Shown here: positions 2,413-62,572 of the stretch, piece by piece
Layout of the letters: the number at the start of each line of letters is the position of its first letter
How positions within the stretch are numbered: the stretch's first letter is position 1
Assembly: GCA_964599405.1 (NCBI GenBank)
Contig: CAZRED010000001.1
Location: 11,528 to 75,527, forward strand
Direction: 5' to 3'
Origin: an uncultured Candidatus Saccharibacteria bacterium
GTDB taxonomy: Bacteria > Patescibacteriota > UBA1384 > 2-12-FULL-50-11
DNA length: 64,000 bases
Program-made: the position numbers and the translations under genes
The notes under the pieces: generated by a model
Databases searched by the model: none
The model's input: the letters and a program-made list of their open reading frames with translations, nothing else
What the model was told of the DNA's origin: nothing

Positions 2413-3425
2413 ATTGGCTGCGCGACGCCCTGGCTTTGGCTTGGAAATACCTGAAAATCGGTTTTTCATTTGTTGCTAGTGGCACCAGCCGGATCCGCAA
2501 CTGGCTACGCCTGCACGTGCCGTTTATCGAGGCGGTTGTTCAGCGCCACATTCATAATCCGGCCACAATTTTTATCGATATCGCCGTTTTTGTTCTAGGG
2601 CTATATCTAGTCTTTGGCGTTACCGGCTATATCAACGTCTACAACCAAAAATCCGAGAGTCGGTTTTCCGAAGTATTAATGGGCCTCTACCCTTTGCCGG
2701 CTGCCAAAGTCGATAGCTCTTACGTCTGGAGCCACCGTTTTCTGCAGCGACTGCGGTTTTTGAATACCTTTAATTCCCAAGCGCCGGCCGAGGTGAGAGA
2801 CAAGCTGCCAACGGAAGTCGAACTGCGGGAAAAAATTATGGCCGGACTAATTGAAGATCAAGTCGTGTTATTGGAGGCAACTGAATTGGGGGTGCGAGTA
2901 ACGAAAGAAGAGCTGGACGCCGCCTTTGAAGAGCAGAAAAAGCAGACGGAGAATTTCGAGGCCACTTTGAAAGCCCTTTACGGCATGAGCGCCCAAGAAT
3001 TCAAGCAAGTTATTGCCGAACGAATTTTGAAAGAAAAACTCAAGAGCGTGGTACTGCTGCGGGTGAAAGTTCGCCATATTTTAACCGCCACTGAGGGCGC
3101 CGCCCGGGAGGCGCGGACGAAAATCGAGCAGGGTGGAACGTTTGAGGATGTTGCTAAAGAGTACAGCCAGGATACCCAGACTAAAGAGGTCGGCGGCAAT
3201 TTGGGCTACTGGACCACCGGGGAACTAGCCGCCCAGGTATCGACAAACTTTGAGGAGGTCGCCTTTTCTCTGCCAATTAGCCAATTATCTGACCCCATTC
3301 AAACCAAATTCGGTTTTCACGTTATTCAAATCACCGAGCGTAACGAGGGCGAGCCAAAAACCTACGCTGACTGGTACGCCGAAGTTCAGAAAAACCATAC
3401 CGCCAAAGTATATATTCCCTACTAG
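2379..3425 (+). CDS. membrane-anchored PpiC/parvulin-type peptidyl-prolyl isomerase (PrsA/SurA-like)
   Basis: N-terminal TM; C-terminal parvulin domain (VRHILTATEG...GGNLGYWTTGEL...FGFHVIQITER). Confidence 0.75.
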   Translation: MGKLSSITVVLNWLRDALALAWKYLKIGFSFVASGTSRIRNWLRLHVPFIEAVVQRHIHNPATIFIDIAVFVLGLYLVFGVTGYINVYNQKSESRFSEVLMGLYPLPAAKVDSSYVWSHRFLQRLRFLNTFNSQAPAEVRDKLPTEVELREKIMAGLIEDQVVLLEATELGVRVTKEELDAAFEEQKKQTENFEATLKALYGMSAQEFKQVIAERILKEKLKSVVLLRVKVRHILTATEGAAREARTKIEQGGTFEDVAKEYSQDTQTKEVGGNLGYWTTGELAAQVSTNFEEVAFSLPISQLSDPIQTKFGFHVIQITERNEGEPKTYADWYAEVQKNHTAKVYIPY

Positions 3426-3473
3426 CGCCTTTCTTGAAGGACGAAAAATTGGTAAAATACGGGGGTGCTATAT

Positions 3474-3549
3474 GCGTCCGTAGCTTAGCCTGGTTTAAAG
3501 CGCCTCCCTGTCACGGAGGAGATCGCCGGTTCGAATCCGGTCGGACGCG
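3474..3549 (+). tRNA. tRNA-Asp (GTC)
   Basis: Cloverleaf: acceptor GCGTCCG/CGGACGC, anticodon stem CCTCC/GGAGG, loop CTGTCAC, T-loop GGTTCGAATCC; CCA not encoded. Confidence 0.85.
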
Positions 3550-10626: not shown

Positions 10627-11371
10627 CGACGTTTTTCAGCAACAGTAAGACTGTCAGTGGCCCGACGGCACCGCGCTTTGGCGTAATTAATTTAACCGCT
10701 TTTTCGACTGACTCGAAGTCCACATCAACCCCGGAAGCGTCGACAACCGTCATGTTTTCGGTAACAAAATCGGCCGTGACTAATTTTTCTACGCCGGTAG
10801 CAGTAATTAAAATATCGAAAGTTTTAATTTTTGCGGTTTCGTTTTCAGCCTTGCTGACAATCTGTTCATAGGGCCAGCTGTTGCGCTGAAACATTTCTGC
10901 CAACGGCTTACCAACCAATCGGCCAGCGCCTAAAATTACTGTATTGGATTTTTTTAAATTCAGGCCGTTACGCTCCAGCAGCATCACAATGCCGGTAGGT
11001 GTGGGAGGGGGAAAATTTTCCGAAATTAGCCCGTCGACATCTTTACTTGGCTCTATTTGCGAGAGAATTCGCTCGGTCTTAACATTTTTTGGCAGCGGTA
11101 GCTGCACAACAATTCCATCAATTTTTTTGTTTTCGTTCAAGCTGGCAATTAACGCTGATAGCTGGCGTTCGGCGGCGCGTTCGAAATGGTGGAGCTGGAA
11201 TTCAATCCCCAGCTCCAGTGCTTTTTTCTGTTTGGCACGGACAAACTTTTCCGTTTGTTTGTCGTTACCCACCCAAATCAACGACAGTTGTGGTGCGCGC
11301 TCCAAATTCTGGCGCGTTAGCAGAATTTCTTCTGTTAGCACGTCTAGTGCTTCCGTTGCGGACAGCAACAT
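10574..11371 (-). CDS. folD: bifunctional methylenetetrahydrofolate dehydrogenase/cyclohydrolase
   Basis: VGNDKQTEKFVRAKQK...DGIVVQLPLPKNV...ILGAGRLVGKPLA; 3' end overlaps thrS 3' end by 53 nt on the opposite strand. Confidence 0.85.
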   Translation of the reverse strand: MLLSATEALDVLTEEILLTRQNLERAPQLSLIWVGNDKQTEKFVRAKQKKALELGIEFQLHHFERAAERQLSALIASLNENKKIDGIVVQLPLPKNVKTERILSQIEPSKDVDGLISENFPPPTPTGIVMLLERNGLNLKKSNTVILGAGRLVGKPLAEMFQRNSWPYEQIVSKAENETAKIKTFDILITATGVEKLVTADFVTENMTVVDASGVDVDFESVEKAVKLITPKRGAVGPLTVLLLLKNVVSSSELQQDSSKRNRPV

Positions 11372-12012
11372 CAGCTAGTTGGAGTAAGCTCGGCAAGTTT
11401 GCGGTTGATAATTTCCTGCCACTGATCCATGGACTGTGCCCCAACGATTCGCTCACCGTTGACAAAAAAGGTTGGGGTTGATGAAACTCCGACGCGATCA
11501 GCTTCAGCCTTGTCTCGCCCGATGGCATCAGCCACGGCGGACGAACCGTAATCGTTGCCGAATTTATCCACGTCCATGCCTAATGATTGGGCATAGGCAA
11601 CAAATTGCGCTTTCGGATCGGCCAAACCACTCCACGTTTCCTGTTCAGCAAATAGAATATCGTACATCTCCCAAAATTTGCCTTGTAATCCCGCTGCTTC
11701 TGCCGCTTGGGCAGATTCGTCGGCATTCGGATGGATTGGCAATGGAATGTGGCGGTAAATTAACTGAACGTTTTGTTTGTTATTCTCAAAGCTTTGTTTT
11801 AGGGGCGCCGCGGCCGCTCGACAGGCCGGGCACTGGAAATCGCCGAATTCAACAATTTTAATTGGAGCCTCGTCGCTACCAAGTTTTTGACCAACTGTTG
11901 TATCAATTGTTGCGTTACCGTCAGAAGATTTGCCGCCAAAGACGACAAAACCAACCACTGCCAAAATCGCTACTGCAATCACTCCAACGAAAAACTTTCC
12001 GTCACCGCTCAT
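11371..12012 (-). CDS. DsbA-family thiol:disulfide oxidoreductase (membrane-anchored)
   Basis: N-terminal TM; thioredoxin-fold active site FGDFQCPACR; stop overlaps folD start by 1 nt. Confidence 0.8.
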   Translation of the reverse strand: MSGDGKFFVGVIAVAILAVVGFVVFGGKSSDGNATIDTTVGQKLGSDEAPIKIVEFGDFQCPACRAAAAPLKQSFENNKQNVQLIYRHIPLPIHPNADESAQAAEAAGLQGKFWEMYDILFAEQETWSGLADPKAQFVAYAQSLGMDVDKFGNDYGSSAVADAIGRDKAEADRVGVSSTPTFFVNGERIVGAQSMDQWQEIINRKLAELTPTS

Positions 12013-16294: not shown

Positions 16295-16367
16295 GGTGCT
16301 AGTAGCTCAGTGGTAGAGCAACCGGTTGTGGTCCGGTTGGCCGCAGGTTCGATCCCTGTCTAGCACC
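16295..16367 (+). tRNA. tRNA-His (GTG) with G-1
   Basis: G-1 + GTGCTAG acceptor, anticodon stem ACCGG/CCGGT loop TTGTGGT, T-loop GGTTCGATCC. Confidence 0.85.
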
Positions 16368-16375
16368 CTAAGGAA

Positions 16376-16864
16376 ATGAGAAAACCGTTAGTAGGCATTA
16401 TTATGGGCTCGAAATCAGATTTAGCAGTGATGGAAAAAGCTGCTGAAGTTTTCCAAAATTTTGGAGTTCTATATGAATTAGATATCGTTTCCGCTCACCG
16501 TACTCCAAAGAAAATGTACGAATATGCTTCTGCAGCTGAAAATCGAGGTATCCAGGTAATTATTGCCGGGGCTGGTGGAGCCGCACATTTACCTGGCATG
16601 ACTGCCGCACTAACAAAATTGCCGGTAATCGGTGTGCCGGTGGAGACAAAAACTATGAAGGGTCTAGACTCATTACTCTCAATTGCCCAAATGCCCTTCG
16701 GTGTTCCTGTTGCAACAGTTGCAATTAACGCTGCTGATAACGCTGCATTACTAGCAGTGAAAATTCTCGCTTTGCAAGACGGTAAGCTTTCTCAAAAATT
16801 GGCCGATTTTTATGAAAATCAAAAAGAAAAAGTCATGGAAGATTCGAAAGTACTGAATAGATAA
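16376..16864 (+). CDS. purE: N5-carboxyaminoimidazole ribonucleotide mutase
   Basis: [11 protein letters not shown]...HRTP...[14 protein letters not shown] signature. Confidence 0.9.
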
Positions 16865-22810: not shown

Positions 22811-23377
22811 ATGTTGACCCGCGATGATGCCTACAAGCTTTTAACCGAACATGTCGCTGGAGAAAATCTCATTCGCCACTGTTTGGCCGTGGAAGCGGCG
22901 ATGCGCGGACTAGCCAATCACTTCCAGGAGGATCAGGAGTCTTGGGGTATCGCTGGGCTGTTACACGACGCCGACTGGGAAATCACCCGCGACACGCCAG
23001 AAACTCACGCTAAAGTGGTCGCCGAATGGCTGGAGGATTGGGATTTGGGCGACGAAGGTATTAAAGAAGCGATTTTAGCCCACAACCACTTTCATAACGG
23101 CCACGAGCCGCCGCAGAACCAAATGGAGTGGTCGCTTTACTGCTGCGACGAGCTGACCGGCTTGATTGTCGCTTGTGCATTGGTTCAGCCGAATAAGAAC
23201 TTGGAAACCGTGACGGTGGAATCGGTAATGCGCAAATTCCCGGAAAAAGCCTTTGCCGCCGGGGTGGATCGCTCAAAGATTCAGCACTGCCAAGCCGAAT
23301 TGGGAATTGAACTGGAAGACTTTGTGGGGATTGTGCTGGAAGCAATGCAGAATATCTCCACCGAACTCGGTCTTTAG
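22811..23377 (+). CDS. HD-domain phosphohydrolase
   Basis: H...HD...H...D metal-binding pattern (HCLAVEAAMRGL...GLLHDADWE). Confidence 0.7.
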   Translation: MLTRDDAYKLLTEHVAGENLIRHCLAVEAAMRGLANHFQEDQESWGIAGLLHDADWEITRDTPETHAKVVAEWLEDWDLGDEGIKEAILAHNHFHNGHEPPQNQMEWSLYCCDELTGLIVACALVQPNKNLETVTVESVMRKFPEKAFAAGVDRSKIQHCQAELGIELEDFVGIVLEAMQNISTELGL

Positions 23378-30230: not shown

Positions 30231-30613
30231 GGGCCTGACTGGCTTCGACGAGAACATTTACAACCAAATTGGCAAGCGGAAGTGGCCGGCCTTAGAGCCA
30301 CACCCAAATACGTGCAAACGCATTTGAAAAAGCAAAAGCTGGTATCGCTAACTTGTTTAGCGCGCCTACCTTTGCGCCAGCAGTAGCTTAAACACTCACT
30401 GCCGTTTTACTTGATGATTCTACTAATCGGGTAAAGCGCCATATTCGTAGATTGGCCGAGCTGTCCGTGATGCAGTTCGTGCTGAAAATACTTCACTGCT
30501 GTCGTTGGTATTCTGACTGTCTCAAGCCAACGATTTAAGATTTAGACAATCTATGCTTGTAGAAGATTTGGTTAGTAGGTTTTCGGACCCGAGTTCAATT
30601 CTCGGCAGGTCCA
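30231..30613 (+). ncRNA. ssrA: tmRNA (ssrA)
   Basis: 5' GGGCCUGACUGGCUUCGACGAG and 3' UUUCGGACCCGAGUUCAAUUCUCGGCAGGUCCA parallel E. coli GGGGCUGAUUCUGGAUUCGACGGG / UUUCGGACGCGGGUUCAACUCCCGCCAGCUCCA; ends pair; tag ORF GCT at 30347 to TAA at 30389-30391 encodes ANLFSAPTFAPAVA; resume context UAUC-GCU-AAC vs E. coli UAGUC-GCA-AAC; CCA not encoded. Confidence 0.85.
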
Positions 30614-30739
30614 CTTCTCGACTCGTTACACTCGCTCGAAGTAAACCACTTCGGACTCAAGCGGATGACGAATCGACAACTAACTAACAGCACGAGAAAC
30701 CCCGAGCAACGTCGAGGGGCTCTTGCTGTATGATTTTTT

Positions 30740-35245: not shown

Positions 35246-35539
35246 CTATTTTGGAGCGTCTTCTTCGAACTGTTTTTTGTAGGCGTCAGGGTCGGTGATG
35301 TTGCCGATGCCAGGGATGAAGTTGGATTCAAATTGGTAGGTGGTTTGGCCGTTTTTAAGGGCTTCCTGGATGGCGATGTTGCGCTGGGTGTTACTGGAAA
35401 TTGGAAGTGGCACCCCTGTTTCACTGGAGCTGAAATGGGCGGAAGCAAAATTAAAACCACCCAGTAGGGCGATTAGCGCCCCAAGGGCAAAAACCGCTTC
35501 GGGTAAATTACTGCGAGATTTCGATTTTGGTGATTTCAT
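35246..35539 (-). CDS. small secreted hypothetical protein
   Basis: Signal-like N-terminus; unknown. Confidence 0.35.
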
Positions 35540-36107
35540 CGCCGACACGAATGGATTGTACCACGTCCACGCCAACAGTTACTTTGCCAAAAATGGTGTA
35601 ACTTTTCGGCAAAGAATCGTTGTCGCCCAACATAATAAAGAACTGGCTGGAGTTAGTGTTGGGACCACGGTTGGCCATTGCCAAGACACCCGTTTTGTAC
35701 CCAGCTTGGTAAGAGGCGGTGTCAGCGTTGAGTTCGTCTTCGAACTCCGGCCCGTATATAGATTCACCACCAGTGCCGTTGCCGCTTGGGTCGCCGCCCT
35801 GAATTACAAACCCGGGCTCCACACGGTGAAATGTCAGGCAGTCGTAAAATCCGTTCTTGGCTAGGGTGGCAAAGTTAGTAACGGTTTTCGGTGCATCGTT
35901 TGGATAAAGCTCTAATTCGATATCGCCCTTGGGTGTTTTTATTACGGCTTTGGTCGCGGAAACTGGTTCATACTTCATGGGTGGGACCTCCTTATTGGGG
36001 TTAGGTTGGCAAGTGATGGCAGTGCTAGACGTATCGCTTCCAGGAGTAAAAATAAATATTCCGGCGATGACGGCCACAACAACAATAATACCAAACCAAT
36101 TTTTCAT
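35508..36107 (-). CDS. cyclophilin-type peptidyl-prolyl isomerase with N-terminal membrane anchor
   Basis: [14 protein letters not shown]...[13 protein letters not shown] motifs. Confidence 0.9.
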
Positions 36108-36108
36108 G

Positions 36109-36180
36109 TGCGCCCACTTGGACTCGAACCAAGGGCCCCTTCCACGTCAAGGAAGTGCTCTACCGCTGAGCTATAGGCGC
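36109..36180 (-). tRNA. tRNA-Val (GAC)
   Basis: Reverse complement: acceptor GCGCCTA/TGGGCGC, anticodon stem CTTCC/GGAAG loop TTGACGT, T-loop GGTTCGAGTCC. Confidence 0.85.
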
Positions 36181-46821: not shown

Positions 46822-48069
46822 TCAGAGAACGAACAGCAACACCATTGCGATCGACATGATCGCAAATGTCGCGTAGCCCAGCACATTGCTTAAGCGGGAA
46901 TTAGTATAGCGGCCCATTAATTTTTTATTGTTGGCGACATGAAGAATAACGTAAATTAAAATTGGCGAAGTGACACCGTAGAATATTCCGGTATATATGA
47001 GGGCTTTAATCGGATGAATACCCAAAAGCGGAATCATCAATCCAATGATAGTCGAGACAATAATTACCCAGTAGAATTGTTTGGCTTGGTAGAACTTACG
47101 CTCCAAGCCTTCCTTCCAATCGAAAGTTTCGGAAAGAGCGTAGGAGCTGGCACCAGCCAACACCGGGATAGCTAGAAAACCAACACTTATAATACCAATT
47201 GCAAAAATAGCATATGCTAAATCTCCGGCAATTGGCCGGAGTGCTTCGGCCGCGTCGCGTACAGTTTCAATATTGGTAACACCGTTAGCGTTTAGTGTGA
47301 CGGCAGCAGCCACAATAATAAACCACATCACTAAATTAGATAAGAACATTCCCGTTGTGACATCTTGTTCCATGTCTTTTAACTCATGTTTTGTGACTAG
47401 CCAGCGGGAGAAAAAACGCTTTACCTTTGAAAGCTTATCTTCTACTTCCATCGAGGTCTGCCAGAAAAATAAGTAAGGCGAGATGGTTGTTCCGAAGATT
47501 GCCACAATTAGAGCGATCGAATCTTTATTAAATGTAAGATTAGGCACAATTGTGGCCTGTAGTGCAGCAGACCAGTCGGTTTTAGTGATAAATGGTATAA
47601 CCAAGTACGCAAGGAGCACTAAAGCAATCCATTTCAACGTATTGGCGATCGCTCGGTAGGAGAAGATGATTAAACAGACCATAATTAGAGCGGCAAAAAT
47701 AATAGCGTAAAACCACTGGGGCAGTGCAGGAATTAGTAGCTCGGTTACTGCTGCCATTGCCGCCAGATCGGCTCCAATATTTAATGCGTTGCCAGCAAAA
47801 ACCAGCCCAACCAACAGTAGCAGTAGCGGACGCGGGTAATGTTTTTTTAGATTTCCCGCCAAGCCATGCCCGGTAACCAAACCGATCCGGGCGCACATCT
47901 CCTGAATTGCCACCATCAACGGAAAAGTTAGTAGCGATGTCCAGAGCAGTTGGAAGCCTGTTTGGGCACCAACTTGAGAATAAATCGTGATGCCGGCAGC
48001 GTCGTCATCACTTAGCCCGGTGACTATCCCGGGACCAACTTTGCGCCAAAACGACCCCAATCGAGACAT
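46822..48069 (-). CDS. mntH: NRAMP-family divalent metal (Mn2+/Fe2+) transporter
   Basis: GPGIVTGLSDDDAAG and TGHGLAGNL motifs, 11 TM. Confidence 0.85.
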   Translation of the reverse strand: MSRLGSFWRKVGPGIVTGLSDDDAAGITIYSQVGAQTGFQLLWTSLLTFPLMVAIQEMCARIGLVTGHGLAGNLKKHYPRPLLLLLVGLVFAGNALNIGADLAAMAAVTELLIPALPQWFYAIIFAALIMVCLIIFSYRAIANTLKWIALVLLAYLVIPFITKTDWSAALQATIVPNLTFNKDSIALIVAIFGTTISPYLFFWQTSMEVEDKLSKVKRFFSRWLVTKHELKDMEQDVTTGMFLSNLVMWFIIVAAAVTLNANGVTNIETVRDAAEALRPIAGDLAYAIFAIGIISVGFLAIPVLAGASSYALSETFDWKEGLERKFYQAKQFYWVIIVSTIIGLMIPLLGIHPIKALIYTGIFYGVTSPILIYVILHVANNKKLMGRYTNSRLSNVLGYATFAIMSIAMVLLFVL

Positions 48070-60632: not shown

Positions 60633-61675
60633 TACTTTCGCAAGGCGCTACTTAGTAGGACACTTTCCAGAGTTTCTAAATCTTCCAGAACTACGCCGGT
60701 GCCCCGCGCCACAGCGGTCAGGGGGTCGTCACAAATATAAACTTTTGTTTGGGTGGCTTGGGAAATAAGTAAGTCTAAATCGCGCAACAACGCCCCACCG
60801 CCAGCTAAGACAATACCGCGCTCCATTATATCGGCCACCAACTCGGGTGGGGTTTCTTCAATTGTTGCCTTAACTGCTTCAATAATCGCCCCAACCGAGC
60901 GATTAATTGCTTGGCGGACTTGTTCGTCGTTAATAATCACTTCCCTCGGTAAGCCGGTAACTAAGTCGCGTCCGCGCATTGGTCGTTCTAACTTTTCTTT
61001 CTGGGGAAAGGCCGAGCCAATCTCCATTTTTATTCGCTCAGCCGTGCGCTCGCCCAACAGCATATTAAAGTTGTCGCGAGCAAAATCGATGATATCTTGG
61101 TTCATTTCATCGCCGGCAATTCGCAGCGACCGCGAAGCGACAATTCCCCCCATCGAGATAACTGCCACTTCAGTTGTCCCACCGCCGATGTCGATAATCA
61201 TGTTGCCGGTTGCTTCTTGGATTGGCAGTTTTGAACCAATCGCCGCAGCGACCGGCTCTTCAATAAGAAAGGCTTGGCGGGCACCGGCGTTAATAGTTGC
61301 TTCCTCGACCGCCCGACGCTCTACTTCGGTAACGCCGTATGGAATGGCTACGAGCACCCGGGGACGGGGCAATAAGGAAAAGCCTTCTTTGTGAACGCGG
61401 TCTATAAAGTGTCGGAGCATTTGCTCGGTTACCTCGAAATCACTCACCACGCCGTTCACTAACGGCCGAGTAGCGACGATATGCCCGGGGGTTTTGCCCA
61501 CCATAATTTGGGCGTCATGCCCGATGGCTAACACCTGCTTGGTTTTCTGGTTAATGGCCACCACTGACGGCTCGTTAATCACTACTCCCTTACCGCGAAC
61601 GTAAACTAAGGTATTAGCAGTCCCTAAATCAATTCCAATGTCATGCGAAAAGGCTCCAAATAGGCGATTAAGCAT
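60632..61675 (-). CDS. mreB: rod shape-determining actin homologue MreB
   Basis: [26 protein letters not shown] aligns with E. coli [26 protein letters not shown]; start set at that Met. Confidence 0.95.
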   Translation of the reverse strand: [347 protein letters not shown]

Positions 61676-61766
61676 CGCCACCACCAAATGTTTTTTCGCT
61701 AGAGCTAACAACGGCCAGAGCCGTTGTTACATCATGCGAAAAGGCTCCAAAAAGTCGATTTAACAT
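61668..61766 (-). CDS. 32-aa leader ORF duplicating the first 12 codons of mreB
   Basis: [32 protein letters not shown]; stop TAA overlaps mreB codons 2-3. Confidence 0.3.
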   Translation of the reverse strand: [32 protein letters not shown]

Positions 61767-61840
61767 TGTGTTTGAATATTAGGGTAAGGCTTCGAGAAAA
61801 TCAATCACAAAAGTGACGATTAGAGTATATCTCTAATCGA

Positions 61841-62572
61841 TTACTGGTTGTATACCATCACTGCCACCTCTCCTGAAAGAATATTATCTTGGTTCCAGTT
61901 ATGGATAGCGTTCATTAAATTATCCTCACGATAGTAAAAATCGGCACCACTACGGGTTCCCGGGTCATTTGTAATAAATCCTTCCGGGTCATAGCCCTTA
62001 ATTACTACCATATGGTAGAGCGGTCCGGGCGGGGTAAAATTCGGGTTAGCTAGTAGTCGGCCGGCTGCTGGAACAATTACCGGCGTCCCAGCGGCAATTA
62101 GTTGCTTAATTTGCTCAACTGTCGGGTCGCTGATAATTTCGGCGCCGCTAAACTGATAATAAGCGCTGGAGGCCTCGGACAGTTGTTGGAGCGTGATGCT
62201 GTATTTATAGCCACGCTCGGTTTGCCAGGCAACAAATTTTTGCAACTCCACTTCTAGCTGTTCTTTAGTGAGGCTCTGCTTCAAGTAGTAGTCGCGAATC
62301 ATTAAAATCACCGCTTCTTCGCAAGTTTCATTGTGAATAGCGTCCCAAATACCGTTTGGTGCTTGGACATAGAAGGGCACATCTAAAACAATCCGATCAG
62401 GTAGGGTAGCAATTGGTGCCGGCTCAGGCTTAACAACCGGTGGAGGAGTTACGGAAATCGTCGGCTCGGGCTCGGGAATGGCCTGGCTGTTTGCTAGCAC
62501 AAAAACGTAGCTAACTCCGGCACAGAGGCCGAGTGTCACAACCAATAAAAAAATAATGGCCGGATTTCGCAT
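61841..62572 (-). CDS. secreted C39-like (papain-fold) peptidase
   Basis: Signal peptide, Pro-rich linker, VPFYVQAPNGIWDAIHNETCEEAVILMIRDYY motif. Confidence 0.6.
   Translation of the reverse strand: MRNPAIIFLLVVTLGLCAGVSYVFVLANSQAIPEPEPTISVTPPPVVKPEPAPIATLPDRIVLDVPFYVQAPNGIWDAIHNETCEEAVILMIRDYYLKQSLTKEQLEVELQKFVAWQTERGYKYSITLQQLSEASSAYYQFSGAEIISDPTVEQIKQLIAAGTPVIVPAAGRLLANPNFTPPGPLYHMVVIKGYDPEGFITNDPGTRSGADFYYREDNLMNAIHNWNQDNILSGEVAVMVYNQ

Follow-up and report, generated by a model that had tools for sequence, protein, structure and literature searches.

A putative leader cistron that re-encodes the MreB N-terminus ahead of the mreBCD-pbp2 operon in an uncultured Patescibacteria bacterium

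Translational attenuation of the erm/cat type and transcriptional attenuation of the trp type both employ a short leader open reading frame (ORF) and a hairpin placed before the regulated gene. Here we describe a locus in a 64,000-nucleotide (nt) stretch of an uncultured Candidatus Saccharibacteria genome (assembly GCA_964599405.1, contig CAZRED010000001.1, positions 11,528 to 75,527; hereafter the window), in which the cytoskeletal gene mreB is preceded by a 32-codon upstream ORF (uORF) that opens with a second copy of the first twelve mreB codons. In mycobacteria, leaderless short ORFs are established as first cistrons which control the genes downstream of them (Shell et al. 2015, PMC4633059; Canestrari et al. 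2020, bioRxiv 10.1101/834739). Coupling via overlapping stop and start codons is likewise established in Escherichia coli, for the iraD uORF (PMC5574718) and with regard to the requirements of re-initiation (PMC2268962), while a coupling of the coat and lysis genes that does without a Shine-Dalgarno (SD) sequence has been described in phage GA (PMC9955659). Furthermore, a nine-residue N-terminal helix confers membrane binding on the MreB protein of E. coli (Salje et al. 2011, PMC3163269).

The reading favoured here, with a probability of roughly 0.55, is that the uORF represents a functional leader cistron of the mreBCD-pbp2 operon, coupled to mreB by termination and re-initiation. With the mycobacterial short ORFs it shares the position of a short, unannotated ORF at the 5′ end of the transcript and before the first annotated gene of the operon, the lack of an SD sequence and a structured leader. 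The mycobacterial systems, however, contain a polycysteine sensor and a structure that sequesters the downstream ribosome-binding site, whereas the present uORF has no evident stall codons, leaves the mreB AUG outside its hairpin, copies the N-terminus of the regulated protein and belongs to the Patescibacteria rather than the Actinobacteria. As in known termination-reinitiation systems, the uORF stop codon lies within a few nt of the downstream AUG, and in the second carrier lineage (GCA_040881265.1, locus L084) no SD sequence precedes the downstream gene; the locus differs in that its coupling is predicted and in that the uORF adds a strong, conserved hairpin and a peptide segment. By a crude calculation, the region of uORF residues 1-12 shows a hydrophobic moment similar to that of the E. 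coli MreB helix, for which alone membrane binding is known, but the segment is here encoded a second time, at the head of a separate peptide of 32 amino acids (aa). In contrast to the attenuators, the two lineages do not share an alternative pairing that would sequester the mreB ribosome-binding site, and neither a U-tract nor recognizable stall or regulatory codons are present. A leader-peptide attenuator of the erm/cat or trp type was rejected, given that the hairpin leaves the mreB AUG uncovered, ending 17 nt short of it, that no terminator was called and that the strength of a smaller hairpin over the AUG is not conserved. What is distinctive relative to known leaderless coupled uORFs is the copy of the regulated protein's membrane anchor and the mixture of peptide-level and RNA-level constraint.

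The start codons of the uORF and of mreB lie 91 nt apart, where an earlier note on this DNA, made from the letters alone, had given a spacing of 92 nt (coordinates in Table 1). The diverged copy it had reported, at about 31 of 38 nt, is real, with the match counted here as 31 of 36 nt, and its statement that the differences are synonymous holds for all five (TTA/CTT, CGA/CGC, CTT/CTA, GAT/GAC); the probability that five random substitutions would all be silent is 4e-4. Residues 1-12 of the uORF are identical (12/12) to the MreB N-terminus of the same genome. The length of 32 codons and the overlap of the uORF stop codon with mreB codons 2-3, both described in the earlier note, were also borne out. 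The TAA falls inside ATG-CTT-AAT, within ATGCTTAAT, and the mreB AUG, in the +1 frame relative to the uORF, sits 5 nt upstream of the stop in an overlap (ATGCTTAA) that spans 8 nt. When the first 39 nt of mreB were compared with the 300 nt upstream of the gene, this locus scored 27 and 80 related mreB loci scored at most 13, while no upstream self-copy was found at the other long ORFs of the window. An independent Logan assembly of SRR6868922 (L081) is identical at the locus, and a second species has the same architecture in both an NCBI metagenome-assembled genome and a Logan assembly (L084/L085), which argues that the duplicated start is no assembly artefact.

Comparison of the upstream region among relatives, as proposed in the earlier note, revealed that the uORF is conserved in one further lineage, represented by GCA_040881265.1 and the independent Logan assembly L085 and sharing 95% MreB identity with the window organism. 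Between the window and L084, nucleotide identity amounts to 80.5% in mreB, 74% in mreC and 65% in the upstream C39-like peptidase gene, and within mreB the proportion of synonymous differences (pS) is 0.71, i.e. saturated, and that of non-synonymous differences (pN) 0.026. The upstream copies of the two lineages differ at 6/36 nt with no amino acid change (P = 5.5e-5 under random substitutions), and five of these silent differences are located in codons 2-8, outside the hairpin (P = 6e-4). A 3-nt indel in the uORF tail keeps both the frame (32 codons in the window and 31 in L084) and the stop position, with mreB of L084 starting 88 nt past the uORF ATG, and the string ATGCTTAATCG at the stop/start junction is identical in the two. 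A conserved SD sequence for mreB was rejected, since L084 has TTTAAAAACG where the window carries the SD-like GGTGGTGG, pointing to a conserved design that is independent of such a sequence. On this comparison, the frame and stop position of the uORF, its hairpin and its first twelve amino acids are under purifying selection, and the uORF is almost certainly selected, translated and arranged for coupling. The regulatory uORF suggested by the earlier note is thus upheld as far as a translated and selected uORF is concerned, by the frame, stop overlap and twelve residues kept in L084/L085. The same note had regarded absence of the duplicate from close relatives, together with a lack of ribosome occupancy, as a sign of a neutral scar; five close relatives do lack it, yet its conservation in L084/L085 argues against a scar, and a working translational leader is very likely.

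The uORF hairpin, 50 nt in length and corresponding to inverted repeat I1, folds at -26.1 kcal/mol (z-score: -6.7) and has an outer stem of 7 bp (UUUUCGC/GCGAAAA), joined through a GA/UC step of 2 bp to a perfectly paired inner stem of 10 bp (UAACAACGGC/GCCGUUGUUA) with a UCUG loop; the 5′ arm of the outer stem is formed by the mreB-derived codons 9-11. A hairpin of the same architecture is found in the L084 uORF (-28.4 kcal/mol; z-score: -6.9). All 19 base pairs are present in both lineages, three of them changed on both sides (two from A-U to G-C and one from C-G to U-A), while differences are seen in the loop and in the encoded residues (VTTALAVV in the window vs VTAVTTAV in L084). As the pairs are kept while the residues change, selection in codons 13-21 appears to act on RNA structure and not on the peptide. 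No copy of the hairpin with up to three mismatches was found elsewhere in the window, and a covariance model of the leader, run over 91 sources (634 kb of related loci), matched the window, L084 and L085 alone. The hairpin was rejected as a terminator or attenuator because no U-tract follows it and because the sole terminator-like site in 61300-62100 is a palindrome behind the C39 peptidase gene. An interpretation of either the hairpin or this palindrome as a repeated or mobile element was also discarded, each being unique in the window. At the copy/spacer junction (61731-61736 on the minus strand; 1943-1948 in L084), an AUG-UAA occurs in the mreB (+1) frame of both lineages, where the window has AUGAUGUAA and L084 has ACGAUGUAA. 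Located at the base of the inner stem, this minimal ORF of a start and a stop codon may be a simple consequence of the conserved GATGTAAC.

Upstream of the uORF, the -10 box of a promoter-like element ends 9 nt before the ATG, with no SD sequence in the gap. The arrangement TTGnTT-17-TAnTAT/TAGAAT-8/9 nt-ATG is kept in ten loci, namely the window, L084, L082, L083, L086, L089, L090, L094, L001 and L095. The ATG that follows the conserved promoter is that of mreB itself in the eight single-copy loci and that of the uORF in the window and L084. A -10 box 8-9 nt from the ATG, in combination with the lack of an SD sequence, suggests a leaderless mRNA or one with a leader of 1-3 nt, with the transcription start placed by this geometry. 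Since the upstream copy occupies the ancestral, promoter-adjacent start position, the event that created the arrangement would be the insertion of ~91 nt into a leaderless gene, directly after its codon 12.

An insertion or duplication in the history shared by GCA_040881265.1 and the window organism would thus have split off the original mreB start, demoting the ancestral ATG to the start of a uORF of 31-32 codons and leaving an intact mreB 88-91 nt downstream in the +1 frame. Ribosomes would start at the 5′-proximal uORF AUG, unwind the conserved -26 kcal/mol hairpin while translating the uORF, terminate at the UAA within AUGCUUAA and start again at the mreB AUG, which lies 5 nt before that stop codon. 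The hairpin may set the number of incoming ribosomes or make the 5′ end of the mRNA more stable, while in the window the terminating ribosome would also open the small hairpin (-9.6 kcal/mol) over the mreB AUG. As no SD sequence precedes mreB in L084, coupling would be the main route to its translation there. The transcription start, the translation of the uORF, the coupling and the tuning by the hairpin are what we infer in this model.

Contigs of relatives were obtained from a protein search, with at least 120 proteins among the matches listed. The insertion is not found in five close single-copy loci (L082, L083, L086, L089 and L095), the MreB proteins of which are 96-98% identical to that of the window (97% in L082). 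The closest MreB found, with 98% identity, is encoded by L095 (ENA ERZ1823574, HLJ_farmland_Scaff2852689, 2444-3487), which surfaced via a search with the C39 peptidase; as it was not among the 120 listed proteins, protein searches can miss close relatives, and further carriers may exist. Five proteins considered as hidden carriers (P0021, P0034, P0036, P0044 and P0062) were rejected because their differences in MreB length reflect start calls or the C-terminus. A scan of JGI metagenomes with the pattern TTTTCGCAYGAYGTN{14,40}CTNGCGAAAA returned three unrelated chance matches (L091-L093), and neither exact searches with the two uORF peptides nor a scan against Pfam gave a match. A simple tandem duplication of 91 nt was rejected as the origin of the insertion, with the resemblance between the spacer and mreB nt 37-91 not significant in either lineage (20/55 in the window, ranking 56 of 900 offsets; 13/52 in L084). 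An origin of the spacer by template switching is conceivable, as the 3′ arm of the outer stem is complementary to the native mreB codons 9-11. Phylogeny did not separate gain from loss, the flanking genes grouping conflictingly and with weak support. A precise excision of the insertion, leaving a leaderless mreB once more, would result from recombination between the 36-nt direct repeats; this makes repeated loss plausible, and transfer by homologous recombination is an alternative to such loss.

Besides its part in coupling, the peptide or its nascent chain probably also has a role of its own, for example in the membrane binding that the earlier note had offered as its second reading, because residues 1-12, which correspond to the putative amphipathic segment of MreB, are conserved at the amino acid and not at the nucleotide level. 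Residues 1-11 have a hydrophobic moment of 0.54, which is reached by 4% of shuffles and compares with 0.51 for the E. coli segment, a crude measure over 11 residues. More specifically, a micro-protein derived from MreB's membrane anchor, or the nascent chain, could bind the membrane, where it would influence MreB-membrane assembly in trans or else anchor the mre mRNA under translation so that MreB, MreC, MreD and PBP2 are made in place, with the hairpin and the overlap setting the stoichiometry; this elaboration we hold to be rather unlikely.

A free-standing micro-protein, acting by modulation or competition in trans or by co-translational targeting of the mRNA-ribosome complex to the membrane, with the stop/start overlap reduced to operon packing, is possible but doubtful as a replacement for the leader cistron. 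It would account for the amino acids of codons 1-12 being kept through six silent differences while MreB residues 13-30, the best conserved part of the real MreB, are not retained in the uORF, and it fits the hydrophobic moment. In E. coli the nine-residue helix binds the membrane fully as two copies and weakly as a single one (PMC3163269), so that this precedent serves the idea and also weakens it for a lone helix; moreover, conservation is poor over the remainder of the peptide, where the RNA hairpin and not the residues shapes the sequence, close relatives manage without it and the look-up of the peptide in annotations was empty. An improbable explanation is that the leader is tolerated but unselected as coding sequence, with the upstream copy overwritten by recombination with single-copy mreB alleles (the promoter and the first 36 nt), and the hairpin serving as an mRNA stabiliser or as a DNA palindrome, e.g. 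a protein binding site. The genes on the two sides of mreB are discordant, L084 grouping with L082 in the C39 peptidase (82%) and, together with the upstream Big_5 protein, at 82-83%, while its MreC, MreD and PBP2 are closer to those of the window and L095, which suggests a recombination breakpoint near the mreB 5′ end. The presence of the insertion is also patchy, and the upstream copies resemble single-copy alleles from other lineages (three to four differences) about as closely as they resemble each other. Such overwriting, however, requires conversion tracts that end inside a 36-nt target at ~20% nucleotide divergence; it leaves the frame-preserving indel and the conserved overlap unexplained, and no homogenisation of upstream and downstream copies is seen within either genome (5 and 8 differences).

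That the structure is a functionless, neutral scar of a 5′ duplication or insertion is highly improbable. The five close relatives without the element would fit, as would its clean removal by recombination between the 36-nt repeats, but at a pS of 0.71 a neutral 36-nt copy should be largely randomised and is instead 30/36 identical with no amino acid change, and three compensatory pairs, the absence of broken pairs and the preserved frame and stop are likewise at odds with neutrality; divergence of the loop and tail argues against rescuing the scar through a very recent transfer between the window lineage and L084. Recoding, by a +1 frameshift or a gene 60-like hop between the repeats that yields MreB, or an isoform with two helices, with an N-terminus encoded upstream, we regard as scarcely credible. 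It would account directly for MreB-like amino acid selection on the upstream copy, and mreB lies in the +1 frame, which in both lineages has no stop between the junction TAA and the mreB ATG; each uORF also contains an AAA-A site in its 3′ part, and a strong hairpin sits just past the repeated codons. Nevertheless, neither a slippery nor a stall motif is conserved, a 91-nt hop would be without precedent in its length, chance alone predicts an open frame of 16-17 codons and the downstream copy retains an intact ATG and N-terminus. A bypass of the T4 gene 60 type was specifically rejected: matched codons follow trivially from the repeat and a hairpin does follow, but no in-frame stop is found after any repeated or candidate take-off codon.

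Several points weigh against the coupled leader cistron. The nearest relative of each carrier is without the insertion, namely L095 for the window (98% MreB identity) and L082 for L084 (C39 peptidase 82% identical), and its absence from five close relatives implies that the element is dispensable and was either repeatedly lost or moved by recombination. All of the selection statistics come from the one pairwise comparison of the window with L084, the carriers falling into two lineages. Codons 22-30 of the uORF are poorly conserved between these two, and the small hairpin over the mreB AUG is strong in the window alone, where a 6-bp stem folds at -9.6 kcal/mol, compared with a 4-bp stem at -2.8 kcal/mol in L084. 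What looks like RNA covariation could also stem from symmetric changes in a DNA palindrome, and recombination with functional single-copy mreB alleles could, in principle, have introduced the synonymous-only pattern. Finally, the promoter-like element matches the consensus at only 8/12 positions and was therefore not called by the promoter scanner.

The host belongs to the Patescibacteria, or Candidate Phyla Radiation (CPR), and the nearest GTDB species representative shares 88% MreB identity. All features of the locus are on the minus strand, in the order Big_5/C39 protein, C39-like peptidase (62572-61841), mreB, mreC, mreD and PBP2. The uORF is missing from all gene calls, and the called mreB start differs among assemblies, with a GTG call in L088 and a TTG-extended ORF from 61711 in the window. 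The palindrome that the earlier note had placed between the C39 peptidase stop and the leader is real and unique in the window, with a core of GATTAGAG-ATATA-CTCTAATC (61838-61818). Together with its T-rich tail it folds at -13.7 kcal/mol (z-score: -4.4). It is not found in the relatives, where the stop codon of the C39 peptidase gene abuts the -35 box, and it is most simply a genome-specific terminator of that gene, outside the conserved leader. A scan of 61400-62000 against Rfam 15 (E-value up to 10) detected no relevant family; the sole match, a sub-threshold hit to DUF3800-XI inside mreB (61487-61523, minus strand; 14.5 bits against a gathering threshold of 37.8; E = 1.1), is taken as chance.

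Table 1. Features of the mreB 5′ region of the window (positions are those of the window; L084 is the locus of the second carrier lineage).
Feature	Start	End	Strand	Remarks
mreB	60632	61675	-	347 aa, ATG at 61675; PF06723 MreB_Mbl; first 36 nt (61675-61640) are the downstream copy
uORF	61668	61766	-	ATG at 61766, 32 codons and TAA at 61670-61668; orthologous L084 uORF has 31 codons
Upstream copy of mreB codons 1-12	61731	61766	-	At the ancestral start position; 31/36 nt as in 61675-61640
Promoter-like element	61776	61804	-	-35 TTGATT (61804-61799), 17-nt spacer, -10 TAATAT (61781-61776); read from the sequence
RNA hairpin within uORF codons 9-25	61693	61742	-	Inverted repeat and folding; kept in L084
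SD-like GGTGGTGG before the mreB ATG	61678	61685	-	L084 has TTTAAAAACG at the site
Small hairpin GGCGAU-GCUUA-AUCGCC	61663	61679	-	mreB AUG in the stem, uORF UAA in loop/stem; stop/start overlap ATGCTTAA
Terminator-like palindrome CGATTAGAG-ATATA-CTCTAATCG, then TCACTTTTGT	61817	61839	-	Directly 3′ of the C39 peptidase stop codon (61841-61843)

Elsewhere in the window, five genes on the plus strand (starts at 22811, 23414, 26859, 34535 and 55617) have a TTGnnn-16/18-TAnnnT box that ends 6-9 nt before the ATG, with no SD sequence. This recurrence of the geometry implies that leaderless-type starts seem common in the genome; clear SD sequences occur at a minority of window genes, for example 46822-48069 (AAGGAGG) and 11371-12012 (AAGGAG). 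Two further ORFs directly follow tRNA genes. The ATG of a 199-aa ORF (35508-36107, minus strand) begins at the base right after the 3′ end of tRNA-Val (36108-36180, minus strand), and an ORF at 16376 (plus strand) begins 7 nt past tRNA-His (16296-16368, plus strand); processing of the tRNA 3′ end could generate a leaderless mRNA here. The window also harbors a transfer-messenger RNA gene (30231-30614, plus strand) with a long predicted tag peptide of 25 aa (ANAFEKAKAGIANLFSAPTFAPAVA).

Short promoter-proximal uORFs with a stop codon overlapping the mreB start are present at 11 of 48 Patescibacteria mreB starts, a share that falls to 1.4% when every ATG of these loci is counted. In the Saccharimonadia, six loci (L031, L032, L033, L037, L045 and L048) carry a uORF with a constant length of six codons and an ATGA overlap, located ~17 nt upstream of mreB, which begins at locus position 3001 (1081 in L037). 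The encoded peptides are not conserved (MKALAL, MKMLAL, MKVKHL, MNLCAK, MMMVAR and the GTG-started VTSACP), and no description of these six-codon uORFs was found in the literature searched. A uORF of seven codons (MISRASP) occupies the conserved leaderless ATG of L002 (2981-3004), while in the sister loci L051 and L061 mreB itself is at the leaderless position; L028 and L061 are listed among the loci with recurrent promoter-proximal mini-uORFs. The Saccharimonadia mini-uORFs thus share with the element in the window the gene, the phylum, the promoter-ATG geometry and the overlap of their stop with the mreB start, but they are only 17 nt long, lack a hairpin and encode unconserved peptides that do not copy the MreB N-terminus.

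If it functions as proposed, the leader cistron would provide a natural example of how a leaderless gene gains a regulatory leader, in that an insertion past the start codon turns the old start into that of a uORF, after which its frame, the stop/start overlap and the hairpin are maintained by selection. Were the peptide itself active, it would furthermore constitute a rare micro-protein that is derived from, and acts on, the membrane anchor of its parent. As judged from the 11/48 loci with mini-uORFs, mreB may be routinely expressed via promoter-proximal mini-uORFs in several lineages of the Patescibacteria. These arrangements may offer a clue to how uncultivated bacteria with small genomes set the levels of a dosage-sensitive cytoskeletal protein without initiation led by an SD sequence.

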